A stretch of 64,000 nt of DNA from Patescibacteria group bacterium AH-259-L05 (GTDB lineage Bacteria > Patescibacteriota > Patescibacteriia > UBA2591 > UBA6264): assembly GCA_027717985.1 (NCBI GenBank), contig JALLOO010000001.1:80534-144533 (forward strand). The letters are read 5' to 3'. Each line of letters begins with the position of its first letter. Position 1 is the stretch's first letter. The notes under the pieces were generated by a model. That model was not told the origin of the DNA. It did no database searches and saw only the letters and a program-made list of their open reading frames with translations. The position numbers were made by a program, and so were the translations under genes. Shown in pieces: positions 22,884 through 64,000 of the stretch.

Positions 22884-23858
22884 TTACAATCTTACCTTCC
22901 TAAAATACTCACTCGCAAACGCATAAAATATACCAATAAACAATCCTAAAATTCCCGCAATCATCACATTTTGAGTTCTGTTGGGAGCGATTCTTGTCTC
23001 AGGCGGAGCCGCCGCAACCTCAACAGTGGTGGGCGTTGTTTGATATGCTTTTTCAAACTCTTTTTGCTGTAACTGTTGATCAATATTTATTAATTGCTGC
23101 TCTAAACTTAAAATTTGCGCTTTTTTATTCTCTTCTTGATTTTTAACACCTGCTAATAAATTAATATAGCTTTCAGCAATGCGTCCTTGTCCTTCAGATT
23201 GCACATTAGCCCTTTTGCTAATTTCTTTTTCATAATACATAATATCTTCTTCCAGACGAGCAGCATCTTGTTTAATTTTTTCAATATCTTTAAAAGTTTT
23301 TTCTTTATTTTTTTCAATTGTTTCAATTTCTTTATTTAATGTTTTTTCAGCTTCAGAAAAAAGTAGTTGATGCCGATTATTCAATATTTCAACAACCGCA
23401 TTAACCATTTCAACTGATTTTTCTGGCGTTTGTCCCCGGCCTTTTATACGTACAAAGGTAGATTTTTTTATAGCATCAATATCAAAACGACCTTTTAGGG
23501 CTATAGGAAATATTTCATTAGATAATCCTAATTTTGAATGAAGTCGTTCTAAGGTTATTTCCCGATCAAATATTGCCTTAATATCATCAACACTTTCTAT
23601 GTTTGACCCTTTTATTTGTGAGATTTTTACTAAAGATGTTGCCTCAAATGTTTCAGGCATAGTTAAACTAATGACCGCAGTAAGTATTACCGCTGCAAAA
23701 AAAATCGCCAAGATTTGCACTTTTCTTTTTAAGAGCACATCAATATAATCACGCAAATCAATTTCCTCCTCATAAACAACATTGTCATTGCGAGGCGCCG
23801 TAGGCGCCGAAGCAATCTCATTTTGCTCCTTGTTTTTTTCTTGATTTTGATTTTCCAT
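22884..23858 (-). CDS. Polysaccharide chain-length determinant (Wzz-like) protein
   Basis: N-terminal EEEIDLRDYIDVLLKRK followed by a TM, a long coiled-coil periplasmic region, and a C-terminal TM (IAGILGLFIGIFYAF). Confidence 0.65.
   Translation of the reverse strand: MENQNQEKNKEQNEIASAPTAPRNDNVVYEEEIDLRDYIDVLLKRKVQILAIFFAAVILTAVISLTMPETFEATSLVKISQIKGSNIESVDDIKAIFDREITLERLHSKLGLSNEIFPIALKGRFDIDAIKKSTFVRIKGRGQTPEKSVEMVNAVVEILNNRHQLLFSEAEKTLNKEIETIEKNKEKTFKDIEKIKQDAARLEEDIMYYEKEISKRANVQSEGQGRIAESYINLLAGVKNQEENKKAQILSLEQQLINIDQQLQQKEFEKAYQTTPTTVEVAAAPPETRIAPNRTQNVMIAGILGLFIGIFYAFASEYFRKVRL
23782..23819 (+). repeat. Family-A-like GC-rich hairpin repeat in frame in the wzz-like gene N-terminus
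   Basis: TTGTCATTGCGAGGCGCCGTAGGCGCCGAAGCAATCTC: the same TTGTCAT lead and ATTGC-GA...GA-GCAAT architecture. Encodes EIASAPTAPRND on the minus strand. Confidence 0.6.
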
Positions 23859-23872
23859 AGATTGGTCGATTG

Positions 23873-24103
23873 TTAAATTCTTGTTAAAATATCTAAATAT
23901 TCTTTTGATGATATACCTAATATTCTTAAATTGTTGCGTATAATAAATATTGGCAGTTCAGAGTATCGAGGAATTATTACTGGTCTTTTTAGATCATCTC
24001 TCCACTAAGTTCGGCGATCTCCTTTTTCTCTTACAAAGTGACAGCCAACAAATAATACAAATTTTTCAAATTTTTTCCAATGAATAGGAACCAAACGAAA
24101 CAT
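23873..24103 (-). pseudogene. hicA: HicA-like toxin gene interrupted by an in-frame TAG
   Basis: Single frame: MFRLVPIHWKKFEKFVLFVGCHFVREKGDRRT-TAG(24007-24005)-WRDDLKRPVIIPRYSELPIFIIRNNLRILGISSKEYLDILTRI. GDR replaces the usual GSH motif. Confidence 0.6.
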
Positions 24104-24108
24104 GTAGT

Positions 24109-24399
24109 TTAAGCATTTAATGGTACTTTGACGCTTTCCAATTCTTGTGAAACAACTGCTGGCGGCATCCATTTTGTTTTTACCCGTTTCCATCCCAACT
24201 CTTGCAAGACCTCGGATAAAGTACCTCTTTTAAGTGTTTCTTCAAAAAAGATTTCAACAGCTTCATTAAACCGTTTTTTTGCCTCATCATAGTTTTTTCC
24301 GCATGTAGATAAATCAAGCGCTGGCGTATAAGCAATAAAGGTTTTCCCTTCGCGGAAAACAGATACTGGTAAATTAACTTCTACTTTTACTCGTTTCAT
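24109..24399 (-). CDS. hicB: HicB-like antitoxin (UPF0150 family)
   Basis: REGKTFIAYTPALDLSTCGKNYDEAKKRFNEAVEIFFE is typical of the HicB N-terminal domain. It sits 5 nt upstream of the hicA remnant. Confidence 0.7.
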   Translation of the reverse strand: MKRVKVEVNLPVSVFREGKTFIAYTPALDLSTCGKNYDEAKKRFNEAVEIFFEETLKRGTLSEVLQELGWKRVKTKWMPPAVVSQELESVKVPLNA

Positions 24400-24448
24400 A
24401 AATTTTTATTGGTTATTGATTGTTTATAACAAGCAGTCTAATTGATAT

Positions 24449-24477
24449 ATTATATCATCGTTTTTTAAACCAGTCAA
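24449..24477 (-). promoter_or_regulatory. Predicted consensus promoter (TTGACT-17-TATAAT) for hicB
   Basis: On the minus strand, -35 is at 24477-24472 (inside the 3' end of the galE-like gene) and -10 at 24454-24449. Confidence 0.5.
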
Positions 24478-25453
24478 TAGTTAATTTTAGGCCGGTATTT
24501 AAATCAATTTTTGGCTTCCACCCAAGCTCTCTTTTTATTTTTTCCCAATCAAGCGCACTTCGCTGCAACTCTCCTTTAATAGGCGGTTCATATTTTTTAG
24601 ATATTTTAGAATTAGTAAATTGAGTTAATTTTTTAAAAATTTGATTAACACTAGTTTGCTTCCCAGTGCCAACATTGTATATACCTATTTTATTTCCTCC
24701 AAGAGCCAATAAATTCGCACGTACCACATCTTCAACATACACATAATCCCGTGTTTGTCTGCCAGATCCGTTAATAGTACATGGTTTGTTGTTCAATATA
24801 TTGAGAATAAATATAGCAATAACTCCTGCTTCTGCAAGCACATTTTGTCGTGGGCCATACACATTTGCGTATCTGAGCACAACGTAATCCAGCCCAAATT
24901 GTTTATAAGAACCTGACTTCGTCGCGCTAAGCGCGACTTTGTCAGAACCTTGAAATTTGAAAGGAATGATATCTTTATCCAAATTATAATAAATTTTTAA
25001 ATATTTTTCAACCGTGAGCTTGCTTAACCCATAAGGCGAAGTTGGCTGAGCAGTGTAACTTTCAAGTGTAGGTATTTTTTTTGTTTCCCCATAGATAGCC
25101 CCACCAGTTGAAGAGAAAATAATTTTTTTTACTTTATATTTTTGCGCGTTTTCAATAACATTAAGCGATCCTAATATATTAACATCAGCGTCGAATACAG
25201 GGCTTTCTAAAGAGGCTCTTAAATTGATCTGTGCGGCACAATGAAATACAATGTCAGGTTTTTCACTAATAAAAATCTCATTAACTTTTTTATCTCGAAT
25301 GTCTATCTTAAAGAATTTTGCTTTTGGATTTATATTTTTTTTTAATCCAGTCGATAAATCATCAATTATATATACTTTATGCCTATTTTGAATGAGAGAG
25401 TCCACAAGGTGAGAACCAATAAACCCCGCCCCACCAGTTACTAAAATTTTCAT
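24455..25453 (-). CDS. NAD-dependent sugar epimerase (UDP-glucose 4-epimerase GalE-like), with a repeat-derived 26-27-aa insertion
   Basis: ILVTGGAGFIGSH and YGLSKLTVEKY (YxxxK). The conserved run ...KIYY / KQFGLDYVVLRYANVYGPRQ is interrupted by NLDKDIIPFKFQGSDKVALSATKSGSY. Confidence 0.8.
   Translation of the reverse strand: MKILVTGGAGFIGSHLVDSLIQNRHKVYIIDDLSTGLKKNINPKAKFFKIDIRDKKVNEIFISEKPDIVFHCAAQINLRASLESPVFDADVNILGSLNVIENAQKYKVKKIIFSSTGGAIYGETKKIPTLESYTAQPTSPYGLSKLTVEKYLKIYYNLDKDIIPFKFQGSDKVALSATKSGSYKQFGLDYVVLRYANVYGPRQNVLAEAGVIAIFILNILNNKPCTINGSGRQTRDYVYVEDVVRANLLALGGNKIGIYNVGTGKQTSVNQIFKKLTQFTNSKISKKYEPPIKGELQRSALDWEKIKRELGWKPKIDLNTGLKLTIDWFKKR
24905..24983 (+). repeat. Family-B repeat, full-length copy with nested GCGC palindrome, in frame in the galE-like gene
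   Basis: Collinear with 82-140 apart from an extra GCGCTAAGCGCGACTTTGTC. The palindrome GTCGCGC-TAA-GCGCGAC is at 24921-24937 and is flanked by GACTTCGTC / GACTTTGTC. Confidence 0.9.
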
Positions 25454-25457
25454 GTTT

Positions 25458-27344
25458 TTATTTATATGTAGGAATGAGTTCCTTTAAAATTTTAATTATA
25501 TTATCTTTATTTCTGTCAGTAAGAGCAGTTTTTAATTTTTCTAATCCATTAATTAATTTTTGTTCATCAAAATCACTTAATTTGGCAATAAATATTTTTT
25601 CGTGTTTTGTTGGTGTTTCTGAATCAGTAAGAAGTTCTTCAAACATCTTTTCTCCTGGCCGCGGCTTAATAAAAACAATAGGAATATCTACATCAGGTTC
25701 GTATCCGGCTAATTTAATCATTTCTCTGGCTAAATCAAGCACTTTCATAGGTTTTCCCATATCAAGAACAAAAACTTCACCTCCTTTACTGGTAGCGCCT
25801 GCTTGCATAACAAGTAAACAGGCTTCAGCAGTTACCATAAAATATCTTTTCATGTCTGGACCAGTGACTTCAACTGGTCCGCCTTTTTTAATTTGTTGTT
25901 CAAAAATACCAACTACATTTCCCTGAGAATCAAGCACATTGCCAAATCTGACTGCGCAGAATTTGGTTTTGTCTTGTTTATTTAACCATAAACAAATCAT
26001 TTCCCCGACCTGTTTTGTTGCTCCCATAACAGAACTTGGGTTAACTGCTTTGTCAGTAGAAATAAGAACAAGTTTTTCGGTTCCATATTTTAGAGCTGTT
26101 TCCCCAACAATTAAAGTACCAAATATATTATTTTTAACTGCTGCATCTGGATGGGACTCCATTACTGGTACATGTTTATACGCAGCAGCATGAAATACAA
26201 CGTCAGGTTTAAAAGTATTAAAAAGCCATTCTATTTTGTCCTTATCACAAATATCACCCACAATAAAAGATTTTGATATATTTGGATATTTCTTTTTTAA
26301 ATCTCGTTCTAAATGGAAAATTCCAGTTTCATTTTGATCTAGAGCAATTAAATTTTCTGGTGAGAAGTTTAATATTTGTTCGCACAAGTGTGAGCCAATA
26401 GAGCCAGCCGCGCCAGTAACTAAAACTGTTTTGCGAGAAATAAATTCTTTAATGGATTGTGTATCAATAGTAACGGCATCTCGTCCTAGAAGATCTTCTA
26501 TAGAAACTTCGCGAATATGGCTTAAGCTAACCTTTTCAGCGAGAATTTCTTTTGTTCCGGGTAAAATTTTTATTTTTTCAACCCCAGCCTTCCTAGTTGA
26601 TTCAACAGTTTCTCGAATAGCTTTTTGAGAAGCTGAAGGCATGGCGATAATAAGCTCTTCAACGTTATGTTTTTTTATAATATCAGGTATGTTTTTTCGT
26701 GTTCCTAATACTTTAACCCCATGGATTAAAACCCCTTGTTTCATAGGATTATCATCAATAAATCCAACTGGAGCATAGGGGCTGTTTTTAGAAGATAAGA
26801 TATGTCTAGATAGTTGTTCTCCGGCGTCACCAGCGCCAATAATTACAACAGGAATTCCTTTTCTTTTTTTGCCATTGTAAGAAATTCCTCGTTTAAGTCC
26901 ATGTAAATAAATTCTTTTAGAAAAACGAAGTCCACCCGTTGTTAAAAGGGTTAAAAAGCCTGAAATAAAAATAATAGAGCGGGGAAATCCAGCAAAAATA
27001 GGATGTTCACGAAAGATAAAAAGTTCAGTGCCCACAACAAGAAAACTGACAACAACGGCTCTAAATAATTTTAAAAGTTCGTTAACACTAATAAAGGACC
27101 ATGAGATAGAATATAATTTTTCCAGCCAAAAGAAAAAAATAGTTACCGGCACAGCTAACAGAATAAATCCTTTTATCATTGTAGAATATTCTTCATATGG
27201 AATCGATCCATCAAATCGTAGAAAAAATCCCAGCCAGCACGATAAAGTTATCAGGACAATATCACCAAGTAGAAAGAAAATCGTTCTTTTAGTTGTTGTC
27301 CGAGCAAGAATTTTTTGTTTAAGTTTTTTAATCGCGGATTTCAT
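25458..27344 (-). CDS. Membrane-anchored polysaccharide biosynthesis protein CapD/PglF/WbpM-like (nucleotide-sugar 4,6-dehydratase family)
   Basis: Four N-terminal TM segments, two Rossmann folds (VVIIGAGDAGEQ; VLVTGAAGSIGSHL). 628 aa. Confidence 0.8.
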   Translation of the reverse strand: MKSAIKKLKQKILARTTTKRTIFFLLGDIVLITLSCWLGFFLRFDGSIPYEEYSTMIKGFILLAVPVTIFFFWLEKLYSISWSFISVNELLKLFRAVVVSFLVVGTELFIFREHPIFAGFPRSIIFISGFLTLLTTGGLRFSKRIYLHGLKRGISYNGKKRKGIPVVIIGAGDAGEQLSRHILSSKNSPYAPVGFIDDNPMKQGVLIHGVKVLGTRKNIPDIIKKHNVEELIIAMPSASQKAIRETVESTRKAGVEKIKILPGTKEILAEKVSLSHIREVSIEDLLGRDAVTIDTQSIKEFISRKTVLVTGAAGSIGSHLCEQILNFSPENLIALDQNETGIFHLERDLKKKYPNISKSFIVGDICDKDKIEWLFNTFKPDVVFHAAAYKHVPVMESHPDAAVKNNIFGTLIVGETALKYGTEKLVLISTDKAVNPSSVMGATKQVGEMICLWLNKQDKTKFCAVRFGNVLDSQGNVVGIFEQQIKKGGPVEVTGPDMKRYFMVTAEACLLVMQAGATSKGGEVFVLDMGKPMKVLDLAREMIKLAGYEPDVDIPIVFIKPRPGEKMFEELLTDSETPTKHEKIFIAKLSDFDEQKLINGLEKLKTALTDRNKDNIIKILKELIPTYK

Positions 27345-27355
27345 TTCAAATATTG

Positions 27356-28276
27356 TTATTTGTTGGATAACAAACTTTTTACTCTTTCCACAATTGTTTC
27401 TGGCGTGAGTCCATATTCTTTTCGTAAGAAGTCTCGACTTCCTATTTTTTTTGCAAACGTGTCATTAACCCCGATTCTTTGAAATATAATTCTTTTTGAC
27501 ATATTTTCCATTAATATTTCTGCTACTGCACCGCCCAGCCCTCCCAGAATAGTATGTTCTTCAATGGTAACCACAGCGTTGGTTTTTTGAGCCGTTTTTA
27601 AGATTGTTTCTTTATCGATTGGTTTAATGGTATGCATGCTTATGACTTCTACATTGATATTTTCTTTTGAAAGGAATTCTGCAGCCTCGATAGCCGGCTC
27701 TAACATCCCCCCTGTTGTTATCATAGATATATCATTTCCCTCGCGCACTGTTATTGCTTTACCAATTTTGAAATCAGGAGGTGTTTGATGGATTCGTTTA
27801 CTCATAGAAAGACGTAGATAGCAGGGCCCTCTTTTTTTAATAACCGCTTTTGTAGCAAGGCTTGCTTCAATAGGGTCATTTGGTGCTATAACAGTCATAT
27901 TGGGCAAAGATCTTAGAATGGCAAGATCTTCTGTAGGGTGGTGTGTTGATGCTAATGCGCCATAGTGAAAGCCACCGCCAACAGCAACGATCTTTACATT
28001 ATGGTTGTGATAACATACGTCACTTCGAATTTGTTCTAAACAGCGAAGAGTAGGGAAGTTGCCAATGGAGTAGGTAAAAACTGTTTTCCCTGTGCTTGCC
28101 AGACCAGCTGCAATTCCAGTCATATTCTGCTCTGCAACGCCAGCATTAAGAAATTGATTTGGAAATTGGGCCTGAAAATCTTCAATAACTGAATACCCAA
28201 GATCGCCCGTAATAAAAAAGATATTTTTATTTTTCTCTGCGACTTCAGTCAGTGTTTTAATAAAGGCATTTCTCAT
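27356..28276 (-). CDS. Transketolase, C-terminal (pyrimidine-binding) subunit
   Basis: GVAEQNMTGIAAGLA and a 306-aa size typical of split transketolase. Overlaps the N-terminal subunit gene by 4 nt. Confidence 0.8.
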   Translation of the reverse strand: MRNAFIKTLTEVAEKNKNIFFITGDLGYSVIEDFQAQFPNQFLNAGVAEQNMTGIAAGLASTGKTVFTYSIGNFPTLRCLEQIRSDVCYHNHNVKIVAVGGGFHYGALASTHHPTEDLAILRSLPNMTVIAPNDPIEASLATKAVIKKRGPCYLRLSMSKRIHQTPPDFKIGKAITVREGNDISMITTGGMLEPAIEAAEFLSKENINVEVISMHTIKPIDKETILKTAQKTNAVVTIEEHTILGGLGGAVAEILMENMSKRIIFQRIGVNDTFAKKIGSRDFLRKEYGLTPETIVERVKSLLSNK

Positions 28277-29112
28277 AAACCAAAATCTTCTTTTTTAATA
28301 TTTAATTCATTAAATGCTTGTTCTAAGAGTTTTTCATCCATATTTTTGTAATGCCATGCTACGGTATTTTCCATAAAACTTACCCCCTTTCCTTTTATAG
28401 TATGGGCAATAACAAACAAGGGCTTTCCTTTTTTAACAGGGATAGGTGTAAGCGCTGATTCGATTTCTGTATGGTTATGTCCATCGATCTCTTTTACGGT
28501 CCATCCAAATGCTTTTAGTTTATCAGCAACGGGCTCAAGATCAAGTGTATCTTTTACCGGTGCTAAACTTTGAATTTTATTATAATCTAAGATAACAATT
28601 AAGTTATCTAATTTGTGATAAGGAGCGAAAAGAAAGGCCTCCCAATTTGAGCCTTCATCCATTTCTCCGTCGCTTACGATAACGAACGTACGATATTTTT
28701 TTTTATCTCGTTTTCCCGCAAGTGCAACTCCACAGGCAAACGGTAGTCCATGCCCTAATGATCCAGTTGAAAGCTCAATGCCGGGAACATTGAGTTTGGT
28801 AACATGTCCTGCAAGTTTTCCATCATCTTGATAATACGTGTCAAGCCATGACATTGGGAAGAATCCTTTGAGCGCTAATGCCGCATATACAACAGCGGCT
28901 CCGTGTCCTTTGCTCATAATAAATCGATCTCGATCTTCCCATTCTGGGTTTTTGGGATCAATATTTAAAATATTTTTATATAAAACAGCGATAATATCTA
29001 CTGCTGAAAGGTTTGATCCAGCGTGAGCACTTTGTCCTTGATATACCATCTTAAGAACATATCCTCTAATTTTTTTCGCTTGTTCCTGGTAGTTTTTTTC
29101 TTTGGTATGCAT
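28273..29112 (-). CDS. Transketolase, N-terminal (ThDP-binding) subunit
   Basis: SAHAGSNLSAVDI, GSLGHGLP and VSDGEMDEGSNWEA (ThDP/Mg motif). Confidence 0.8.
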   Translation of the reverse strand: MHTKEKNYQEQAKKIRGYVLKMVYQGQSAHAGSNLSAVDIIAVLYKNILNIDPKNPEWEDRDRFIMSKGHGAAVVYAALALKGFFPMSWLDTYYQDDGKLAGHVTKLNVPGIELSTGSLGHGLPFACGVALAGKRDKKKYRTFVIVSDGEMDEGSNWEAFLFAPYHKLDNLIVILDYNKIQSLAPVKDTLDLEPVADKLKAFGWTVKEIDGHNHTEIESALTPIPVKKGKPLFVIAHTIKGKGVSFMENTVAWHYKNMDEKLLEQAFNELNIKKEDFGL

Positions 29113-29184
29113 AATGTTATTTTTTGTGTTATGTTTTTATAATCTGGCAATAGAAATATTAAACCCTTTAAACTTCCAAGGCTC

Positions 29185-29205
29185 TGGCCTCATTTTTTGT
29201 ATTTC
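29185..29205. repeat. 21-nt direct repeat TGGCCTCATTTTTTGTATTTC (copy 1)
   Basis: Identical to 29455-29475. Lies 10 nt beyond the stop of the small Cys-rich ORF. Confidence 0.85.
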
Positions 29206-29214
29206 CTTATTTTT

Positions 29215-29394
29215 TTATTTAACGCTAGATTCCTCTCGCACTGTTTTATTATTTTGTCTATGCTTTCTGTCGGTGCAGAGACACGCTTTTAGTGGATGTT
29301 GGTAATCTGTACAGTCTGGCGCTTGACAAGCACATGGTGTATCAGATACTCCTTCACAGCCACCAGTACAGATATAATGTTTGTGATTTTCCAT
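29215..29394 (-). CDS. Small Cys/His-rich protein (59 aa), putative metal-binding; not in the supplied ORF track
   Basis: Hand-translated: MENHKHYICTGGCEGVSDTPCACQAPDCTDYQHPLKACLCTDRKHRQNNKTVREESSVK. Seven Cys in CxxxC, CxC and CxC spacing plus four His. Same strand as the operon and fills an otherwise empty 375-nt gap. Confidence 0.5.
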   Translation of the reverse strand: MENHKHYICTGGCEGVSDTPCACQAPDCTDYQHPLKACLCTDRKHRQNNKTVREESSVK

Positions 29395-29454
29395 AATTAA
29401 TAATTAGCTAGTTATTTTTTTTTAACTATGGACGGGAACATCGAGGCGATTTTT

Positions 29455-29475
29455 TGGCCTCATTTTTTGTATTTC
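29455..29475. repeat. 21-nt direct repeat TGGCCTCATTTTTTGTATTTC (copy 2)
   Basis: Identical to 29185-29205. Lies 13 nt beyond the stop of the methyltransferase gene. The adjacent GAGGC...GCCTC stem followed by a T run looks like a terminator when read on the plus strand. Confidence 0.85.
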
Positions 29476-29487
29476 GTTTATTCTTTA

Positions 29488-31366: not shown

Positions 31367-31390
31367 GTTATTTAGATAGATAAAGTAGTT

Positions 31391-32146: not shown

Positions 32147-32229
32147 AGTTTGTATCTGATTAAATTTTGTTAGTTATTGTTCTAAGATTATGATATCCTA
32201 ATAGGCAGGGTTAGTCAATTTATCAAAAT

Positions 32230-46527: not shown

Positions 46528-46533
46528 AGATAT

Positions 46534-47151: not shown

Positions 47152-47167
47152 ATATTTTCCGTTTTAT

Positions 47168-53369: not shown

Positions 53370-53380
53370 ATGTATATAAT

Positions 53381-54352: not shown

Positions 54353-54401
54353 AAAAAGATGTTCCTTATGTTCGTCTTGTTTTGATCCACCTCCCTTTAT
54401 T

Positions 54402-54431
54402 AGTATATACATTTTAAGGCCAAATTGTCAA
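54402..54431 (-). promoter_or_regulatory. Predicted internal promoter (TTGACA-18-TATACT)
   Basis: On the minus strand, -35 is at 54431-54426 and -10 at 54407-54402, in the 97-nt gap after the wzx-like gene. Confidence 0.4.
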
Positions 54432-54449
54432 GATTAGTCTTGTATCTTT

Positions 54450-57135: not shown

Positions 57136-58246
57136 AAAATTTTTTAATTGTTTTTATAATTTTACTCTGGTTTTTATTTGACAATTCTGGGTAGACTGGT
57201 AGTGACAAAATTTCTTTGCTTGCTTGTTCTGCTTCGGGAAAGTCGCCTCTTCGATATCCTAAATCTCGAAATACCGATTGTAAATGTAATGGTACGGGAT
57301 AGTAGATAATCGTAGGAATAGTGTGTTGGTGTAGGTAGGTTTGCAATTTATTTCTCTGTTTTATGCGAATAGTGTATTGGTGATAGGCATGGGTATTATG
57401 CTTTTCGACAAAAGGAGTATGAATTTGTTTTATATTTTTGAGGGCATGATTATATACGGCGGCTTTTTGTTGCCGTGATCTTATCCAGGAGTTTAAATAT
57501 TTTAATTTAACATTGAGAACCGCAGCTTGAAGTGCATCAAGTCGAGAATTTATGCCCAACATATTAGCGACGTATTTTTGATATCTTCCATGAATTCTCA
57601 GTAATTTGATTTTTTCAGCTATTTTTTTATTATTTGTAACGATCATTCCTCCATCACCATAGGCGCCGAGATTTTTAGAAGGGAAAAAAGAAAAGCAGCC
57701 AAAGTCCCCGATTGATCCAATTGGCTTGCCCTTGTATCTGGCTCCGAGCGCTTGGGCTGCATCTTCAATAACTTTGATTTTATATTTTCGAGCAATAGAT
57801 GTGATAGCATCCATGTCTGACGATTGACCATATATGTGGACTGGTATAATTGCTTTTATTTTTTTTCGTCTATTAGGTGAGATGTGTTTAATAGTTTTTT
57901 CAAGTTTATGGGGATCAAGAGTATATGTTTTTGGATCAATATCAACAAAAATTGGCTGAGCCTCGCGAAGTACGATAACGTCAGCGGTTGCGATAAAGGT
58001 AAACGGCGTGGTGATTACCTTGTCGCCAGGACCGATATCGAGTGCCATAAGTGAGAGAAGGAGCGCATCAGTACCAGAATTTAAGCCGATTGCATATTTA
58101 GTGTCGCAATATTTAGCAATTTCTTTTTCAAATTTTTCTACTTCTTTACCCAAAATAAACTGACCACTGTTTAGAACGTTTTGGATGGCTTGGTTAATTT
58201 CTTTTTTAATTGACCTATATTGAGCGTTAAGATCAAGATATTTCAT
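57128..58246 (-). CDS. DegT/DnrJ/EryC1/StrS-family sugar aminotransferase
   Basis: VIEDAAQALGA and FFPSKNLGAYGDGG. Confidence 0.85.
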   Translation of the reverse strand: MKYLDLNAQYRSIKKEINQAIQNVLNSGQFILGKEVEKFEKEIAKYCDTKYAIGLNSGTDALLLSLMALDIGPGDKVITTPFTFIATADVIVLREAQPIFVDIDPKTYTLDPHKLEKTIKHISPNRRKKIKAIIPVHIYGQSSDMDAITSIARKYKIKVIEDAAQALGARYKGKPIGSIGDFGCFSFFPSKNLGAYGDGGMIVTNNKKIAEKIKLLRIHGRYQKYVANMLGINSRLDALQAAVLNVKLKYLNSWIRSRQQKAAVYNHALKNIKQIHTPFVEKHNTHAYHQYTIRIKQRNKLQTYLHQHTIPTIIYYPVPLHLQSVFRDLGYRRGDFPEAEQASKEILSLPVYPELSNKNQSKIIKTIKKFYA

Positions 58247-58401
58247 AGCTATTATTTAATTTTTATTAGTTTGCCATTTGTATTTAAAGATTTTTGACAG
58301 GCATCGAGTATATTAAGTATCTTAGAAGTTTTCTCTCCTTAATCAAGTCATGCCATGAACATAAACAGTTTTGGGCATAAGTTAATATTAAAAATTGAAG
58401 A

Positions 58402-58650
58402 TTACCAATCTTCAATAATTTTTTTTGTTTTATTTTTTAATTTATGATATATGCTGGCGGTTTTCCTCTCAGCTTTTGGCGAGATTAATCTTAATATTTC
58501 TGCTCCTACAATTTTATATCTACCGCCAACTTTATTGGCTCTGATAATACCTTTTTTTAGCCAACGTTTAATTGTACTTTCACTTATTTTTAAAAAATTT
58601 CTGGCTTCTTTTGTAGTATAAATTTTATTTGGTTTAATTTCATCCATCAT
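58402..58650 (-). CDS. Excisionase/MerR-superfamily helix-turn-helix DNA-binding protein
   Basis: YTTKEARNFLKISESTIKRWLKKGIIRANKVGGRYKI matches the excisionase-family HTH signature. 82 aa. Confidence 0.65.
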   Translation of the reverse strand: MMDEIKPNKIYTTKEARNFLKISESTIKRWLKKGIIRANKVGGRYKIVGAEILRLISPKAERKTASIYHKLKNKTKKIIEDW

Positions 58651-58667
58651 AACGATTTAATTGAAAA

Positions 58668-58696
58668 TCAAGGTTCTGACGAAGTCAGGTTCTTAT
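58668..58696 (-). repeat. Family-B repeat core in the 5' leader of the HTH gene
   Basis: The plus strand reads TCAAGGTTCTGACGAAGTCAGGTTCTTAT, the reverse complement of 82-110. It lies 18 nt upstream of the ATG at 58650. Confidence 0.85.
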
Positions 58697-58722
58697 AAAG
58701 AGACACCCATTAACCTTAGATT

Positions 58723-58751
58723 ATTATATCAAAGGTGTCAATAGGTGTCAA
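58723..58751 (-). promoter_or_regulatory. Perfect consensus sigma70 promoter TTGACA-17-TATAAT
   Basis: On the minus strand, -35 is at 58751-58746 and -10 at 58728-58723. Probable start of the 58.6-to-22.9-kb transcription unit(s). Confidence 0.6.
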
Positions 58752-58770
58752 CAGGTATCAACAGGTTTAT
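58731..58770. repeat. Four 10-bp phased direct repeats (AAAGGTGTCA ATAGGTGTCA ACAGGTATCA ACAGGTTTAT) overlapping the -35
   Basis: Helical-phase spacing of the A-GGT-TCA core, directly upstream of and overlapping the consensus promoter. Confidence 0.75.
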
Positions 58771-58883
58771 AAGTGGAAAACTTTTTTATATTTTCTGTTC
58801 TTTATTGCATCTCTAGCAGCAAACACCGTAGCAGTTTTTTGAACAATTTTGATTGTAATTAAATCCAGAATGATTAGCTAAAA

Positions 58884-59867
58884 TTAAAACACAATCATAA
58901 TTTTTAAAGATTTGCGGAGTACTTTACTAGATTTTATGTCCAACAATACCCCAACAAAAGCGCCACCAAGGGCTAATGATATTGAAACAATATGGATTAG
59001 GAAACTGTAAATAACAGCATCATGTTTAGCAACCCCAATCAAGAGTAATCCAAGAGTCAAACCTCCTTCTTTGTAACCAAAACCACCAATGGTGTTTAAA
59101 GGAATTAATCCTGCAACTACAGATATAGAAGCAATGAGTATTGCTTCGCCATATGAAATTGCTAAACCAATAGATATACAAAACAATTGAACCATTAAAA
59201 AATTTGAACCCCAAAATAGAACTGTGGTAATAAACAATTGTTTTTTCTTTTTTTTATTAATTTTTAAAGCTTCTGATATAGAATACAAGTTATTATTAAT
59301 TTTTTTCAACCATTTATTTTTATCAGAAACCAGTTTATTTGAAAGATTAGCAAATACTTTAACTATTTTATTAAGATATTGAATTGATAACCAGGCAATA
59401 AGAGCGATTAAAAAATATCCAATATACAATATTTTTTTATTTTCAATATCAATATTACTAAAAAAAATTAACCCTCCACCTAAAAATAAAGCTATTACCA
59501 AGATATCAAATATTCTTGTGAGTAATATACTTGATAAACCAGTTGAAATTGCTTGATTTGTATTTTTTTTAATTAAGTATGGGAAAGTTAATTCTCCTAT
59601 TCCGCCGGGAAACAACCTTGTATACAAGTTATAAAAAAGGGTTATTCTGAAAATATCAAGTATTTTCAAACGAACCGCCAAACTATAGTTAAATCTAATT
59701 GCCCTTATTAAACTTGAAATAAATGTAAACAAAAAAGCAATAATCATCAATGGATAATTGATTTTTAATTTAAAGTCTTGAATTCTACCAAGATCAATTT
59801 GTTTAACTAGCAAGACAATTATAATAATAGAAAATATTGTTCCAAATATTATTTTTTTCCTTTTCAT
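58884..59867 (-). CDS. Flippase-like / LPG-synthase-TM (UPF0104) family membrane protein
   Basis: 327 aa with about 8 TM helices and a basic N-terminus. The layout is typical of UPF0104 proteins found beside glycosyltransferases. Confidence 0.5.
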   Translation of the reverse strand: MKRKKIIFGTIFSIIIIVLLVKQIDLGRIQDFKLKINYPLMIIAFLFTFISSLIRAIRFNYSLAVRLKILDIFRITLFYNLYTRLFPGGIGELTFPYLIKKNTNQAISTGLSSILLTRIFDILVIALFLGGGLIFFSNIDIENKKILYIGYFLIALIAWLSIQYLNKIVKVFANLSNKLVSDKNKWLKKINNNLYSISEALKINKKKKKQLFITTVLFWGSNFLMVQLFCISIGLAISYGEAILIASISVVAGLIPLNTIGGFGYKEGGLTLGLLLIGVAKHDAVIYSFLIHIVSISLALGGAFVGVLLDIKSSKVLRKSLKIMIVF

Positions 59868-60769
59868 CCGTTATTTTTTTTAATATATAATTGTATAATC
59901 GAGCCCTTTTTAATCAATGCTTCAAAAGCCGTAAAAGGATAAACAATGATTTGCAATAACATATAAATTATCAATAAATGTTTTGGATATTTACCTTGAT
60001 ACGTTTTTCTAATTCTTTTTGGTGTAAAAATAGGAAACAACGATAAGACCAGTGCGCTTGATGATGTTTTATGTGAAAAGTATTTAACTTTCTCTATTTT
60101 TAGATTGTTATAAGCCTTAATCAAATATTTTAATGACTTTAAATTAAAATGGTTTAAATGAATGGGTATTTGTAATGGTTGCCATTTTTTCTTAAATAAC
60201 TTATAGCCCAAAGAATTAATATTTGGTAATTCAATTATTAATATACCTTCAGGTTTTAATAATTCCACAGCCTTTTCTAGAGATTTTTTTGGATTATATA
60301 AATGCTCAAGCACATGAAGACAAACAATAGCCTTAAACTGCTCATGATTAAAATTTGAATTTTCTATTGTTGTGTTAATTAAATTTTTATTTTGATAGCT
60401 TTTGTTATATAAGTCTATGCCTAAGCAGTTAAAATTAGTTTTATTTAATAAATTCACAAAAGATCCATCACCAGCGCCCCAATCTAGTATTTGGTCGCTC
60501 TCAGAAGCATTTTTCTTTAAATATTTAATAATGTTATACACTCTAATCTTATAAAACAAACCTAAAAGACCTTGTGAAAGGCAGCCTGGCTTTTGCCAAT
60601 ATTCTTCATTATAGTATTTGTTTAATTGTTCTTGATTTGGGACTGGATCAGTGCTTACAAATGAACATATTAAACATTGTTTTAATGAATAAATTTCATT
60701 AAATGATGTTTTATAATCAGATAGCAATGTTTTAAACTGATCTCTATTACAAATTCTACATTTTTCCAT
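59864..60769 (-). CDS. Class I SAM-dependent methyltransferase with N-terminal Cys4 ribbon
   Basis: CRICN...CLICSF, ILDWGAGDGSF and AIVCLHVLEHL. Confidence 0.7.
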   Translation of the reverse strand: MEKCRICNRDQFKTLLSDYKTSFNEIYSLKQCLICSFVSTDPVPNQEQLNKYYNEEYWQKPGCLSQGLLGLFYKIRVYNIIKYLKKNASESDQILDWGAGDGSFVNLLNKTNFNCLGIDLYNKSYQNKNLINTTIENSNFNHEQFKAIVCLHVLEHLYNPKKSLEKAVELLKPEGILIIELPNINSLGYKLFKKKWQPLQIPIHLNHFNLKSLKYLIKAYNNLKIEKVKYFSHKTSSSALVLSLFPIFTPKRIRKTYQGKYPKHLLIIYMLLQIIVYPFTAFEALIKKGSIIQLYIKKNNG

Positions 60770-60772
60770 AAT

Positions 60773-61516
60773 TTAATTTGTATGAGTTGGCTTTTGAGCC
60801 TTAACAAAATAATTTAGCGTATAATTCCTTTTTTTATCAATAAAATCAATGGAACTTAGTATTGACGGAATAATTAAGACAAATAATAAATATGAAATTA
60901 ATTCGAAAGGAAAAAATAACACTCTTACAGTACGATTTTTTATTTGCCAAAACATTGTTTTTGGGAGAACCGTAAGTCGATTTGCTAAATATTTAAAATA
61001 ACCGCATGAAGGTTTTATATAAATTACTTTAAATCCTGTGCTTTGCAGAATATGTTGCAAGCCAAAGTTTGTATATCGATAATAATCATGAGGTGCTTGA
61101 TGAACGCCCCAACCTTGAGGCGCAGAAATATAAATTGTTCCACCTGGTTTTAGAATGCGAAAAATTTCATTTAATACTTTTTTAGGCTCTTTAACGTGTT
61201 CAAGTACTTGTGTACAAATGACACTATCAAATTTATTATCAGAAAAGGGAGTATTTTCTAAATCATAAACATAATCTAATTTGCTATAATCCCACGTATC
61301 ATCTCCATAAGCTATATCAACGGCAACATACTTTTGTTTATTAAATATTGATTTATATTGGCACTGTCCTGCACCTGCATCAAGAACAGTTTTATTTGGG
61401 CCTATGTCTTTTGCAGCAGAAATTAAAAATTTGCGAATGTCATATTCGCTGCTTGATATAGTTCTTTTTATAAAGTTTGGACAATATTTGTTATAAATTG
61501 TACTTAAAATTTTCAT
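60773..61516 (-). CDS. Class I SAM-dependent methyltransferase (type 11) with C-terminal hydrophobic segment
   Basis: VLDAGAGQCQY, FDSVICTQVLEHV, and a C-terminal FFPFELISYLLFVLIIPSIL segment. Confidence 0.7.
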   Translation of the reverse strand: MKILSTIYNKYCPNFIKRTISSSEYDIRKFLISAAKDIGPNKTVLDAGAGQCQYKSIFNKQKYVAVDIAYGDDTWDYSKLDYVYDLENTPFSDNKFDSVICTQVLEHVKEPKKVLNEIFRILKPGGTIYISAPQGWGVHQAPHDYYRYTNFGLQHILQSTGFKVIYIKPSCGYFKYLANRLTVLPKTMFWQIKNRTVRVLFFPFELISYLLFVLIIPSILSSIDFIDKKRNYTLNYFVKAQKPTHTN

Positions 61517-61520
61517 ACAA

Positions 61521-63026
61521 TTACATATAACCTAATGATTTTAATTTTTTAATTGTGTCATCGTCTTGGCTCTGTTTAGCCCCAATTTTATGGCGCTTTT
61601 GATGTAAAAATTTGTTTAAAGAATTTTCTAGGCTTTTCGAAATATCCTGTTCAATCTCATATAAATTTACTGTCTCCCCCGGATCGTTTTTGATATTGTA
61701 TAATTCTCTTTTTGAATTTCTTTGTTTTTTTAATTTTTCTTCAATTTTTGTATATAAATTTTTTTGTTTACGAATAATAAAATTGTCCCAGAATTTTTGT
61801 AATAAAAAAATTCTGTATTTTTTATTCTTCCAAAATCTATAACAGAACATTTTGAACAAAACAAATATATTTTTTATTGATTTATTTTCTATGATTTTCT
61901 CAGGTTCCCTAATTAATTTCCATTCATTGGTTCTATAAACAATACGTTTATTTTCAAAATATTTTGGAAAATACGTTTCAGAATATATGAAATCCTTTAT
62001 TTTTTGCTCTTTAGTTGATTGGTCTTTTAGTATATCTAAAATATTTTTACCAATTACATTCTCTGGCATTTTAAATTTAAACCTATTTATTATCGTTGGG
62101 AAAATATCGCCATTACTCACTAAACAATTTACCTTTTTTTCTTTAACGTCTTTTGCCATAGGTCCACTAATGATCAAAGGGATTCTTATAATACTTTCAT
62201 ATAATGTTCTACCATGTCCAATATATTCGTGTTCACCCAAACTTTCTCCATGATCACTAGTAAAAATAATTGAAGTATTTGAATTTAGATTGTTATTGTT
62301 AATAACATTAATTATTTTACCAATACAATCATCAATATTTTTAACGCCACCTTCATAAAGTTCTTTAAATTGATTAATATCGCTTTCTTTTAGCTCTAAA
62401 TTGCCTTTATTAAATTCTTCTGCTTGTTTTACTGATCCATTTATAATGCCAACATATTCTTGGGACTCCTTGCGTATAAAACGCTTTGGCGGTGAATACG
62501 GAAGATGTACATCCCAAAAGTGTAGGAAAAGCATGAATTTATTATCTTTGTTTTTTTTAATCCATTTAATAGCCAAGTCTGTTATAACTTCTCCCCAACG
62601 AAAAATAACTTCATTTTGTGTGTCTGAAATAATTTTTCTATCATTATAAAATCCTTGCGTTTCAAAGACGTCATTATAATAATCAAAACCGCGGTCAAAA
62701 CCACGAGTTTTATCTAAAACAAAAGAGCCTATTATTGCTCCGGTTTTATAGTCATTTTTTTTGAAAATTTCACCTAAAGTAGTAAATCTATCGCTCATTA
62801 CATATGAAAATTCTCTTACGCCGTGTTGAAATGGATAAACGCCAGTTAGTAAGGTACTAAAAACTACCGGAGTGACAGTTGATACGGTAAATGCATTATT
62901 AAAAATACAGCCATTTTGAGCTAAATTATCAATGTTTATTGTTTCACTTTTGTCATAACCATAACACGACAAATAATCAGGCCTTAAAGAATCTATAAGA
63001 ATGAATATTAGGTTTTTATGACCCAC
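61521..63026 (-). CDS. Sulfatase-like (alkaline-phosphatase superfamily) protein, paralogue of 39452-40972
   Basis: NLIFILIDSLRPDYLSCYGY and FTSDHGESLGEH. No C/S-x-P-x-R motif. Shares the C-terminal LKSLGY-type ending with the other copy. Confidence 0.7.
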   Translation of the reverse strand: MGHKNLIFILIDSLRPDYLSCYGYDKSETINIDNLAQNGCIFNNAFTVSTVTPVVFSTLLTGVYPFQHGVREFSYVMSDRFTTLGEIFKKNDYKTGAIIGSFVLDKTRGFDRGFDYYNDVFETQGFYNDRKIISDTQNEVIFRWGEVITDLAIKWIKKNKDNKFMLFLHFWDVHLPYSPPKRFIRKESQEYVGIINGSVKQAEEFNKGNLELKESDINQFKELYEGGVKNIDDCIGKIINVINNNNLNSNTSIIFTSDHGESLGEHEYIGHGRTLYESIIRIPLIISGPMAKDVKEKKVNCLVSNGDIFPTIINRFKFKMPENVIGKNILDILKDQSTKEQKIKDFIYSETYFPKYFENKRIVYRTNEWKLIREPEKIIENKSIKNIFVLFKMFCYRFWKNKKYRIFLLQKFWDNFIIRKQKNLYTKIEEKLKKQRNSKRELYNIKNDPGETVNLYEIEQDISKSLENSLNKFLHQKRHKIGAKQSQDDDTIKKLKSLGYM

Positions 63027-63037
63027 TTAAAATTAAT

Positions 63038-64000
63038 TTAAACGTTTCTCATTAAAACTAGTTTTAAAATATAGAATTTTTGAACCTTCCTATTTTTAAG
63101 TACAATACACCTTTTCTTTGAATAAAGAGGTAAATAAAAAAGAGCAATTATCATACAAATCATTGAAAAGAAGGCAAGAGGAATAGACAATAGTAATTTT
63201 TGAATAAATGGAATTCGTAATTCTACTATTTTAAATAAGTTCCCTACAAATAGCATTGGGAAAAAGATTACGAATTCAATATTTGTCATATTTTTATAAA
63301 AAGCAAAAACTCTATTCATAATTGCTTTAGCGGCAATTTTTAAATGAAATAAATTAAACTTTGGATTGCTATAATGTAGATGAAAAATAATTGAATCTCG
63401 TACGGCGCATATTTTTAAGCCTAGATTATGAAGCCTCATTGATAAATCTGTATCCTCAACGTACATTTTAAATTGTTCATCAAAAAGATACCCTAATTTC
63501 TTAATTGTTTTTTTAGTAATAATAAATGCACCGCCTGAAAGTATTTTTGGGTATAATATTTTTTTGTTTTTGTTTTTATAATATTTCCCATAGCCAAAGA
63601 TAGATAAACTATAATAATATAGACAATTTAAAAACGAAGATCTGTCCATAGTCTTAAATTCTTTAGTTTCTGGCATAAGCATGTTTGATGTACATGCTCC
63701 AATATTATCATGACCAATAATTTTTTGCACAAGGTTTTTAAGCCAGTGCTGATGACAAATAATGTCTTGATTGAGGAATGCAAGATATTTATACTTGGCG
63801 TGCTTTATGGCATGGTTATTGCCAGCGGCAAAGCCAACATTGCTATACAATACCATGTATCTAACTTTTTTGAACTCTTTAGTGATAGAAATGGTATTGT
63901 CTGTTGAGGCATTATCAACAACAATAATTTCATATTTTTCTCTTGGATAAGATTGGTCCTCTAAGGATTTTAATAGATTTCTAATATATTTGCTTCCATT
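63038..64000 (-). CDS. Glycosyltransferase family 2 (5' end beyond the window edge)
   Basis: The frame stays open to nt 64000. Hand translation of 63857-64000 gives ...YEIIVVDNASTDNT..., followed by NVGFAAGNN, FLNQD and VEDTDLSMR. Confidence 0.75.
   Translation of the reverse strand, partial: NGSKYIRNLLKSLEDQSYPREKYEIIVVDNASTDNTISITKEFKKVRYMVLYSNVGFAAGNNHAIKHAKYKYLAFLNQDIICHQHWLKNLVQKIIGHDNIGACTSNMLMPETKEFKTMDRSSFLNCLYYYSLSIFGYGKYYKNKNKKILYPKILSGGAFIITKKTIKKLGYLFDEQFKMYVEDTDLSMRLHNLGLKICAVRDSIIFHLHYSNPKFNLFHLKIAAKAIMNRVFAFYKNMTNIEFVIFFPMLFVGNLFKIVELRIPFIQKLLLSIPLAFFSMICMIIALFYLPLYSKKRCIVLKNRKVQKFYILKLVLMRNV

Follow-up and report, generated by a model that had tools for sequence, protein, structure and literature searches.

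The window analysed here is a stretch of 64,000 nucleotides from the single-cell genome of Patescibacteria group bacterium AH-259-L05, which belongs to the Candidate Phyla Radiation (CPR). Its larger part (positions 22884-64000, counted from a gene for a Wzz-type co-polymerase to the window end) is occupied by 38 genes, 35 of which are glycan-related. An open reading frame (ORF) and profile scan placed plus-strand housekeeping genes at 1-19200 and every family-supported ORF of 19262-64000 on the minus strand. The cluster is tightly packed: nine gene pairs overlap at their start and stop codons, most remaining gaps measure at most 37 nt, and about 1.6 of the 41.1 kb are non-coding (about 96% coding). 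The outermost ORF, a GT2 glycosyltransferase, stays open to base 64000 without a stop codon; the cluster thus extends right up to the window edge. The original prediction, made from the letters alone, had described a single-strand cluster of at least 40 kb with about 36 co-oriented genes, which was borne out (38 genes, all on the minus strand), and its list of parts was reproduced almost item by item by Pfam and NCBIfam profile scans of all ORFs. We consider it likely that the region is a Patescibacteria surface-glycan biosynthesis island working by the Wzx/Wzy route. In its make-up it is a standard Wzx/Wzy-type glycan locus in an unusual host, to which a conserved regulator module and a few accessories, either rare or specific to the lineage, are added.

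The genes for assembly, export and sugar transfer are the following:

22884-23858, minus strand: Wzz / polysaccharide co-polymerase (Pfam Wzz 33 bits, cut-off 25.5, plus GNVR; weak NCBIfam EpsF/Wzz match)
32230-32823, minus strand: PglC-type initiating transferase of 197 amino acids (aa) (Bac_transf E 3.4e-64, profile positions 1-178 of 179)
33653-34858, minus strand: GT4 glycosyltransferase (Pfam)
36912-38030, minus strand: GT4 glycosyltransferase (Pfam)
38133-39422, minus strand: Wzy_C-domain polytopic membrane protein (PF04932 39 bits, cut-off 31.7; at least nine hydrophobic segments)
41034-43721, minus strand: GT-C (PMT_2) glycosyltransferase of 895 aa (PMT_2 63.3 bits, cut-off 26.1, plus H_lectin domain)
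44576-45754, minus strand: GT4 glycosyltransferase (Pfam)
54450-56003, minus strand: Wzx / MOP-family flippase (PF13440 Polysacc_synt_3 70.9 bits and PF01943 Polysacc_synt 68.6 bits, both above their cut-offs)
58884-59867, minus strand: LPG_synthase_TM / flippase-like membrane protein of the distal low-GC module (profile match)
63038-64000, minus strand: GT2 glycosyltransferase cut by the window end (GT-A domain and C-terminal hydrophobic segments)

The machinery of a Wzx/Wzy-dependent pathway, as originally proposed, is thus supported, with Wzz and Wzx scoring above their cut-offs, Bac_transf at E 3.4e-64 and Wzy_C at 39 bits. The Wzz protein has transmembrane (TM) segments at residues 41-71 and 295-318, a coiled-coil middle part and a Pro-rich motif preceding the second TM segment, and the initiating transferase carries an EPS_sugtrans catalytic domain (245 bits). 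The Wzy_C protein could be either a polymerase or a PglL-like ligase. The matches of the GT2 enzyme are with MftF, EpsD and enzymes of chondroitin-synthase type; ArnC, GtrB and DPMS are not among them.

The GT-C enzyme has about 9-11 TM segments (at least seven hydrophobic blocks within residues 1-400), an extracytoplasmic domain of about 200 aa and then two to three H-type-lectin repeats. An identical protein (P0001) carries the NCBI name "glycosyltransferase family 39 protein". Among 1.84 billion cluster representatives searched with HMMER, the full architecture was found in just one other protein (P0002, 64% identity). Elsewhere the middle domain belongs to GT-C proteins with a length of 620-660 aa or is joined to TPR repeats, and the lectin repeats are found in adhesin-like proteins with fn3, cadherin, PKD or subtilase domains. 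As the two parts occur separately elsewhere, the lectin repeats look like a swapped acceptor-binding module. The closest relatives, which have TPR repeats in that position, presumably resemble TMTC-type protein O-mannosyltransferases.

Nucleotide-sugar synthesis is represented by nine genes:

24455-25453, minus strand: SDR epimerase/dehydratase-family enzyme, SDR1 (Pfam Epimerase match split over residues 3-155 and 183-331)
25458-27344, minus strand: membrane-anchored PglF/CapD/WbpM-type UDP-HexNAc 4,6-dehydratase (Polysacc_synt_2 350 bits plus CoA_binding_3; PseB/FnlA similarity)
30260-31366, minus strand: DegT1 aminotransferase, sugar 3-aminotransferase group (nearest among solved structures: QdtB and WbpE)
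34970-36004, minus strand: Gfo/Idh/MocA oxidoreductase (best family match NF040723, archaeal UDP-GlcNAc 3-dehydrogenase, 164 bits, cut-off 450)
36105-36887, minus strand: short NDP-sugar dehydrogenase of 260 aa (NDP-sugDHase 170 bits, cut-off 189.8)
52179-53369, minus strand: DegT2 aminotransferase, 4-aminotransferase group (nearest among solved structures: perosamine synthase and ArnB)
53381-54412, minus strand: SDR2, closest to UDP-hexose/HexNAc 4-epimerases (6dnt, WbgU, WbpP)
55993-57135, minus strand: non-hydrolysing UDP-GlcNAc 2-epimerase, WecB / WbpI-like (TIGR00236 354.8 bits, cut-off 210)
57128-58246, minus strand: DegT3 aminotransferase, WbpE/QdtB-like, C3 amination (316 bits to WbpE, 3nu7)

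WecB, the CapD/PglF dehydratase, the two SDR enzymes, the Gfo protein and the three DegT aminotransferases had all been named beforehand and were all recovered by Pfam and NCBIfam. The Gfo protein would provide a WbpB-like step, since its best family match is the archaeal UDP-GlcNAc 3-dehydrogenase. The short dehydrogenase, which had also been predicted, could be refined to a member of a conserved "mini" family of 258-287 aa in Patescibacteria (P0007-P0125). It keeps the GxGxxG motif and the catalytic Cys of GGTCLPKD, lacks the C-terminal UDP-binding domain and has a shortened NAD domain. Each of its best 120 homologues measures 258-287 aa, at an identity of 60-78%; those with a named source come from Patescibacteria, and in NCBI the family is mostly annotated as hypothetical. 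This uniform length and similarity led us to reject the idea of a pseudogene or remnant. The dehydrogenase would act at the WbpA step, a placement supported by the gene order in a related contig (L083), where short dehydrogenase, Gfo protein, hexapeptide acetyltransferase and DegT follow each other in the order WbpA/B/D/E.

The enzymes that may modify the sugars further are:

27356-29112, minus strand: split transketolase-like thiamine diphosphate enzyme (N subunit 28273-29112, Pyr+C subunit 27356-28276)
29488-30267, minus strand: class I S-adenosylmethionine (SAM) methyltransferase MT1 (Pfam)
31391-32146, minus strand: TylF-type O-methyltransferase (PF05711 45 bits, cut-off 23)
32816-33619, minus strand: class I SAM methyltransferase MT2 (Pfam)
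39452-40972, minus strand: soluble sulfatase-fold enzyme of type A, Sulf1 (T-D-P-S-L..TGR, DHGD metal motif, LGYID tail)
43718-44572, minus strand: distant CE4-fold metallo-deacylase of 284 aa (sub-threshold Pfam score of 16 bits, cut-off 23.1, plus AlphaFold model)
45751-48304, minus strand: contiguous acetamidino-forming trio (AglZ/HisF2 45751-46527, HisH 46534-47151, WbuX amidotransferase 47168-48304)
48306-49193, minus strand: formyltransferase of Fmt/ArnA-N type with N and C domains (170.5 bits, Met-tRNA formyltransferase cut-off 201.5)
49205-50302, minus strand: methyltransferase MT3 with N-terminal Trm112-like zinc ribbon (Pfam and NCBIfam)
50315-52198, minus strand: AsnB-type glutamine amidotransferase (TIGR01536 487 bits, cut-off 267)
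59864-61516, minus strand: two class I methyltransferases of the distal module (59864-60769 and 60773-61516; profile matches)
61521-63026, minus strand: soluble sulfatase-fold enzyme of type B in the distal module, Sulf2 (T-P...LLTG motif, SDHGE, LGYM tail)

Profiles confirmed the six methyltransferases (one of TylF type), the formyltransferase, the WbuX/HisH/HisF trio and AsnB. The trio scores 252 bits for WbuX (cut-off 203), 244 for HisH (105), 368.5 for AglZ/HisF2 (310) and 312 for WbuZ (300), and a tailoring set with WbuX, HisH, AglZ/HisF2, WecB and AsnB all above curated cut-offs fits the amino, formyl, acetamidino and methyl sugars that had been foreseen. A role of the formyltransferase as housekeeping Met-tRNA formyltransferase may be considered; its sub-cut-off score and its position in the operon weigh against it. 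For AsnB, amidation of a uronic acid is the probable function.

The assignment of the CE4-like protein was upheld by its fold and its invariant Asp/His site, as a distant member of carbohydrate esterase family 4 (CE4) with a sub-threshold Pfam score. The top seven PDB matches of its AlphaFold model (built with 25 homologues; predicted local distance difference test 85.8) are CE4 deacetylases with E values from 1e-6 to 1e-3. Residues D48, D50, H103, H106 and H225, which correspond to the CE4 metal site and catalytic pair, are invariant across the 25 homologues. The protein is probably a sugar N-deacetylase or N-deformylase.

The two sulfatase-like proteins do belong to the Pfam Sulfatase family and have the alkaline-phosphatase fold, yet the C/S-x-P-x-R motif is absent. 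They carry Thr in place of this nucleophile motif; true formylglycine sulfatases were therefore rejected and neither protein should be read as a sulfatase. The Thr of Sulf1 aligns (HMMER) with the nucleophile position of choline sulfatase 7oz8, and Sulf2 has V-T-P-V-V. Both lack TM segments, keep the DHG metal motif, end in LGY(I/M) and score 149-155 bits against an arylsulfatase equivalog cut-off of 481. A Thr nucleophile is typical of the phosphodiesterases and phospho-group transferases of the alkaline-phosphatase superfamily (NPP, EptA, LtaS), and for this reason phosphoester rather than sulfate chemistry is the probable activity, with low confidence as to the substrate. Both types, with identical Thr motifs, recur in contig L087, where they adjoin a CE4-like gene.

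The split transketolase was likewise confirmed as two subunits. Compared with E. coli TktA, whose numbering is used here, it retains the cofactor ligands, and His26, His66, His100, Asp155, Asn185, Glu411 and His473 are kept. Of the residues that bind the sugar phosphate, Asp469 is replaced by Leu and Arg520 by Met (MAFFT and BLASTP agree), and no His stands opposite His461. Arg358 and Ser385 probably correspond to R2 and S29 of the TK-C subunit (by eye), at an overall identity of only about 24-31%. The two substitutions weakly favour a tailoring role over that of a pentose-phosphate enzyme. Between the transketolase and MT1 genes lies a Cys-rich ORF of 59 aa without Pfam match (29215-29394, minus strand; MENHKHYICTGGCEGVSDTPCACQAPDC...). 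It is flanked by 35-nt direct repeats (29185-29489; 89% identical, 270 nt apart), each with a small hairpin.

The small helix-turn-helix (HTH) gene of the cluster had been listed as an interruption; it is instead a conserved lead gene that has a promoter of its own together with repeats resembling operators:

58402-58650, minus strand: excisionase-family HTH_17 protein of about 80 aa (profile match; conserved KNKTKKII..W tail)
58651-58765, minus strand: HTH-gene leader and promoter (10-nt TTGAYACC repeat in three tandem copies plus a promoter matching the consensus at 12 of 12 positions; copy C of an interspersed repeat in the leader)

The only 12/12 TTGACA-17-TATAAT promoter of the region, with an extended -10 box, is located 72 nt upstream of this gene, inside a gap of 233 nt. 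The tandem repeats read CCTGTTGATA, CCTGTTGACA and CCTATTGACA, the last one being the -35 box. Homologues of the HTH protein share its C-terminal KNKTKKII..W tail and are about 63-65% identical in L083 and L085 and 44-73% identical in metagenome contigs, save for one weak match at 35%. They precede glycan genes in L083, L085, L086 and, among the roughly 21 metagenome contigs of adequate length, in at least 17, and three, sometimes four, tandem 10-nt TTGAYAYC repeats overlap the -35 box in their upstream regions. Within 200 nt upstream, 18 of 34 loci have the strict triple-repeat pattern, against a background of 2 in 493 kb and 1 in the whole window. The loci with such HTH genes are:

58402-58765 of the window, minus strand
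8400-8730 of L083
4100-4434 of L085
the contigs L090-L123

Since the homologues precede glycan genes and are accompanied by promoter-overlapping repeats, the HTH gene can be described as the conserved lead gene of glycan operons; its product is presumably an autoregulated regulator of these operons and the repeats are presumably operator-like. In L083 (4026-6365), L085 (780-3092) and L086 (1-1516) very large Wzy_C proteins (505-779 aa, one with TPR repeats) are encoded divergently upstream of the HTH gene; in the window this position is occupied by the AT-rich module.

The interspersed repeat (core ATAAGAACCTGACTTCGTCAGAACCTTGA, with a CTGAC-TTC-GTCAG hairpin) occurs in three copies in the window, compared with 0.01 expected:

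81-148, plus strand: upstream leader of a WecA-like gene
24902-24990, plus strand: inside SDR1
58651-58699, minus strand: leader of the HTH gene

The copy in SDR1 is antisense and forms an in-frame insertion of 27 aa (nt 24902-24982), with an extra 18-nt GC-rich palindrome and fold z-scores of about -4. That core block and island have this element in common speaks against assembly chimerism and ties both to one genome.

With its own promoter, the HTH gene splits the region into at least two transcription units, namely a main operon (58.65 to 22.9 kb) and an upstream AT-rich module (from 58.9 kb to beyond 64 kb), which it separates from each other. The main operon probably terminates after Wzz:

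22815-22847, no strand assigned: probable hairpin of the operon 3' end (perfect, 13 bp, GC-rich, 37 nt past the Wzz stop codon)

No internal terminator or promoter exceeding the shuffled expectation was found between 38 and 57 kb, nor were long flanking direct repeats or att-like sites found around the island or the distal module. The GC content is 38.9% at 1-19200, 34.3% at 22884-58300 and 27.5% at 58301-64000, the last being the lowest of all 5.7-kb stretches of the window (minimum elsewhere 31.6%). This computed profile agrees with the AT-rich distal part suggested earlier from spot counts, which were themselves exact (18.3% GC at 59221-59280 and 41.7% at 8401-8460). In the distal block the GC content of first codon positions (GC1) is shifted as well, FYMINK amino acids reach 44% (29-39% elsewhere) and GARP amino acids 15% (16.5-23% elsewhere), which fits either a long stay in a more AT-rich genome or relaxed constraint. 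The AT-rich module and the main operon thus differ in compositional history. The main cluster is not a compositional outlier, because the less conserved core genes (ScpA/B, MurE and the WecA-like gene) share its GC content at 32-36%. Within it, the GC content of third codon positions (GC3) is 0.31 at 38.1-53.4 kb, like the core genes, and 0.24-0.26 on either side. Next to the Wzz gene lies a hicAB-like pair (23873-24399, minus strand), consisting of a HicB-like ORF (24109-24399; weak HicB_lk match, E 0.21) and, downstream of it, a hicA-like toxin gene (about 23873-24100, minus strand) split by a frameshift into two reading frames, which could be either a pseudogene or a single-cell sequencing error.

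The island is positioned just past the conserved rpoB-rpoC-ftsK-recA block, amid toxin-antitoxin genes:

1-19200, plus strand: WecA/MraY-family transferase, TraD-like ATPase, AlaRS, ScpA/B, tRNA-Arg, MurE, RpoB, RpoC, FtsK, HTH_25 protein and RecA
from 19262, minus strand: HepT/MNT and ParE-type toxin-antitoxin pairs, DUF4143 ATPase and ElyC/DUF218 protein

The tRNA-Arg was the only match in an Rfam scan of the window. The PF00953 transferase at 145-1242 (plus strand) scores 72.9 bits with WecA over its full length and 56.2 bits with MraY, short of the cut-off in both cases; it may represent an additional initiating enzyme of WecA/TagO type, and has its leader repeat in common with the HTH gene of the glycan operon. 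Its gene overlaps by 53 nt with that of a coupling-protein ATPase resembling TraD/TrwB (1190-2821, plus strand), which bears a CxxC-x17-CxxC zinc finger at its C-terminus and is found amid the housekeeping genes. The DUF4143/AAA_14 ATPase ORF has a perfect 28-nt tandem duplication with a period of 32 nt at its 5' end (21436-21495), probably within the leader of this gene, as the annotated TTG start seems too far upstream.

That the host is a CPR cell follows from the GT-C protein, which is 100% identical to the protein P0001 of AH-259-L05. The original prediction had tied its functional proposals to a reduced-genome episymbiont-type host, and at the level of the phylum this holds: among 185,579 species representatives, the closest RecA matches are 70-73% identical and come from genomes labelled Kuenen-, Uhr-, Falkow- or Magasanikbacteria or "Patescibacteria group". 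The locus tags are MYX06_00530 for the short dehydrogenase and MYX06_00555 for the CE4-like gene, numbers which suggest that the window is an inner part of its contig of 154,424 bp. Single-cell genomes of plate AH-259 derive from Atlantis Massif sub-seafloor sediment (PMC8406227), an origin that well L05 would share.

The order rpoB-rpoC-ftsK-(HTH_25)-recA is kept in many Patescibacteria contigs. In none of about 40 contigs of relatives, all distant, that extend 10 kb downstream of recA was the present cluster found there, so a comparison that had been recommended earlier shows that the cluster content is not conserved beside recA at that distance of relationship. Instead, parts of the cluster have relatives in separate contigs. 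L083 shares the HTH protein (64%), the short dehydrogenase (75%), the Gfo protein (41%) and the WbpE-like DegT3 (59%). L087 shares the CE4-like protein (47%), Sulf1 (40%), DegT2 (43%) and AsnB (33%), and in L087 and L088 the CE4-like gene, both sulfatase-fold types, DegT2, SDR, AsnB and a PMT_2 gene occur together. L081 shares the GT-C/lectin protein (62%) and Wzx (41%), and also has a CE4-like gene, a formyltransferase and a phosphodiesterase-type protein. The whole gene set was not found in any single contig among those compared. The locus thus appears modular, and the scattering of its modules over different contigs supports a mosaic island. In two Nealsonbacteria contigs, glycan genes accompanied by an ABC exporter take up about 16-18 kb (roughly positions 4.4-20.8 kb of L085 and 2.9-19.2 kb of L086). 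Although the locus had been thought unusually dense, it is not exceptional for the phylum, because comparable multi-gene clusters are present in other Patescibacteria contigs.

Based on the enzyme families, the following pathway can be proposed. The small PglC-type transferase would start the repeat unit on polyprenyl phosphate, and the three GT4 enzymes and the GT2 enzyme would extend it in the cytoplasm, so that with one initiator and four further transferases the unit could hold up to about five sugars. Wzx would flip the unit across the membrane, the Wzy_C protein would polymerise or ligate it and Wzz would set the chain length. Two routes of sugar supply are inferred from family assignments and synteny: (a) from UDP-GlcNAc, the short dehydrogenase, the Gfo-type 3-dehydrogenase, the WbpE-like aminotransferase and the WecB 2-epimerase would lead to 2,3-diamino-2,3-dideoxy-hexuronic acids, whose 3-N may be formylated by the formyltransferase or converted to acetamidino by WbuX/HisH/HisF2 and whose carboxyl group is possibly amidated by AsnB; and (b) from UDP-GlcNAc, the PglF-type 4,6-dehydratase and a 4-aminotransferase or SDR reductase would lead to 4-amino- or 6-deoxy-HexNAc sugars, which are the usual substrates of PglC-type initiating enzymes. 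Further decoration may be added by the six methyltransferases, the CE4-fold deacylase and the non-canonical split transketolase. The lectin-bearing GT-C probably works outside the membrane, attaching a sugar to an acceptor that bears a glycan, and the two soluble Thr-type enzymes of alkaline-phosphatase fold probably act on phosphoester groups.

Several points weigh against a Wzx/Wzy-built polymer of this kind. The substrate assignments rest on family similarity throughout, and the Gfo protein and the short dehydrogenase both score below their equivalog cut-offs. No Hexapep-family protein that could serve as WbpD-type acetyltransferase was detected by Pfam among the ORFs of the cluster; a formyltransferase and the WbuX trio are there in its stead. 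The transketolase could be a housekeeping enzyme. No GtrB/ArnC-type GT2 that could provide lipid-linked donors for the GT-C was found within the window, although such a gene may follow past 64 kb, and neither an LCP-type ligase nor an S-layer or pilin gene is present there; the island's 5' end falls outside this stretch. Finally, the Wzy_C domain is common to WaaL/PglL ligases and O-oligosaccharyltransferases (PglL/PilO). This last point, together with the PglC- and PglF-type enzymes, would also be compatible with a locus that serves mainly protein O-glycosylation, with the Wzy_C protein as a PglL-type oligosaccharyltransferase acting en bloc, the GT-C acting on pilins or S-layer proteins and no free or wall-linked polymer being made. 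The nearest GT-C relatives, with TPR instead of lectin repeats, may be TMTC-like, which would suit this reading. CPR cells are moreover reported to depend on pili (PMC6744442). The last gene of the operon, however, is a Wzz co-polymerase of typical topology, which points to chain-length control of a polymer, and the window lacks pilin and S-layer genes; we therefore regard protein O-glycosylation as the main function as unlikely, and note that it and a polymer are not mutually exclusive.

The 41 kb might also comprise two or three independent glycan loci with different products, for example a distal module for lipid- or teichoic-acid-type modification beside the polymer operon. The fall in GC content from 34% to 27.5% near 58.3 kb, with a similar shift in GC1 and amino-acid usage, and the 233-nt gap with its 12/12 consensus promoter that opens a new unit at 58.7 kb speak for such a division, as do the relationships of the modules to different contigs and the second WecA/MraY-family transferase at 145-1242. 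It is nevertheless improbable, since the cluster has a single gene each for Wzx, Wzy_C, Wzz and Bac_transf, all genes are co-oriented, and the sulfatase-fold types A and B and the CE4-like protein, here split between the distal and main parts, are found together in L087. That the cluster is foreign DNA, i.e., an assembly chimera or non-CPR contamination of the single-cell genome, seems very improbable. Single-cell assemblies can be chimeric, the GC content of the cluster is lower than that of the rpoBC region and some CE4-like homologues come from Halarcobacter and Pseudomonadales, but the short dehydrogenase (60-78%) and the HTH gene (about 63-65%, and 44-73% in metagenomes) are closest to Patescibacteria contigs, ScpA/B and MurE (32-34% GC) match the cluster in composition, and copies of the interspersed repeat are present in the core block (81-148) as well as in the island (24902-24990 and 58651-58699). 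The Wzx/Wzy-type surface-glycan island thus remains our preferred reading.

CPR bacteria, or Patescibacteria, account for a large part of bacterial diversity. They lead a life attached to other cells, with almost no biosynthetic capacity; to our knowledge, their surface covering is essentially unknown. The literature on Wzx/Wzy clusters in CPR and on transketolases in O-antigen clusters yielded only general statements on elaborate CPR surfaces. The present locus suggests that one CPR cell devotes at least 41 kb, or several per cent of a genome of about 1 Mb, to an amino-sugar polymer that is strongly modified and follows ordinary Wzx/Wzy logic in its synthesis. Its location as a modular island outside the conserved core is as expected for a trait under diversifying host or phage pressure, and roles in host attachment, S-layer or pilin glycosylation and phage evasion, which were raised at the outset, may be envisaged. 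A broader scheme can be put forward tentatively for the whole phylum, in which an HTH protein binding three tandem 10-bp TTGAYAYC sites over its own -35 box might control variable glycan operons with lineage-specific enzymes (the two-domain mini dehydrogenase, the soluble Thr-type sulfatase-fold enzymes with the distant CE4 protein, and a GT-C with a swappable TPR or H-lectin acceptor module), the lectin GT-C possibly decorating the cell's own HexNAc-rich polymer outside the membrane. In practical terms, the pair of HTH regulator and operator could be used as a metagenome marker of glycan loci, two presumed sulfatases have been reassigned and a small set of enzymes is open to in vitro substrate determination. 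The type of locus is familiar; its value is in showing how CPR cells organise and probably regulate their sugar coat.

Among known systems, the wbp cluster for the B-band O-antigen of Pseudomonas aeruginosa O5 (PAO1) resembles the locus in having Wzz, Wzx, a membrane-bound WbpM/PglF-type dehydratase, and HisH2/HisF2 with a WbpG/WbuX-type amidotransferase for acetamidino groups. Its Wzy may have a counterpart in the Wzy_C protein, and the route proposed here would resemble its WbpA/B/E/I route to 2,3-diamino-2,3-dideoxy-mannuronic acids. It differs in that the present host has no outer membrane or lipid A, that the initiator is of PglC type instead of the WecA-family WbpL, that WbpD is lacking and the dehydrogenase has no C-terminal domain, and that a formyltransferase, AsnB, six methyltransferases, the CE4-like protein, the Thr-type sulfatase-fold enzymes, the lectin GT-C and the transketolase are additional. 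The Agl N-glycan pathway of Methanococcus, whose AglX/Y/Z acetamidino trio corresponds to WbuX/Y/Z, provides the best curated matches for AglZ/HisF2 (368 bits) and the 3-dehydrogenase (archaeal UDP-GlcNAc 3-dehydrogenase, 164 bits) and makes ManNAc3NAmA-type sugars, the same chemical theme, but it relies on the AglB oligosaccharyltransferase instead of Wzx/Wzy/Wzz, and the Gfo match is below the equivalog cut-off. The Arn pathway (ArnA/B/C/D/T) has a formyltransferase, a 4-aminotransferase, a CE4-fold deacylase and a PMT_2-type GT-C in common with the locus, where the CE4-like gene overlaps the GT-C gene; in L081, CE4-like, formyltransferase and GT-C genes are adjacent. We did not adopt it and do not file the locus as an Arn system, because the window has no ArnC/GtrB-type GT2, a lipid A acceptor is lacking and the CE4-like protein has no NCBIfam ArnD match. 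A pgl-type locus as in Campylobacter (PglC, PglF, PglE) shares the small monotopic initiator, the membrane-anchored 4,6-dehydratase and DegT aminotransferases, whereas the locus described here lacks PglB, possesses Wzy_C and Wzz and has a much more extensive set of tailoring enzymes. Other Patescibacteria glycan loci (Nealsonbacteria GCA_002774555.1 PEYC01000032, which is L086, and the JGI contigs L083 and L090-L123) vary in gene content from locus to locus, and L085 and L086 have an ABC exporter of Wzm/Wzt type instead of Wzx/Wzy, but they have in common with the present cluster the HTH_17 lead gene with its tandem TTGAYAYC repeats, the short dehydrogenase family, SDR, DegT, methyltransferase and glycosyltransferase genes on one strand, and interspersed toxin-antitoxin genes.

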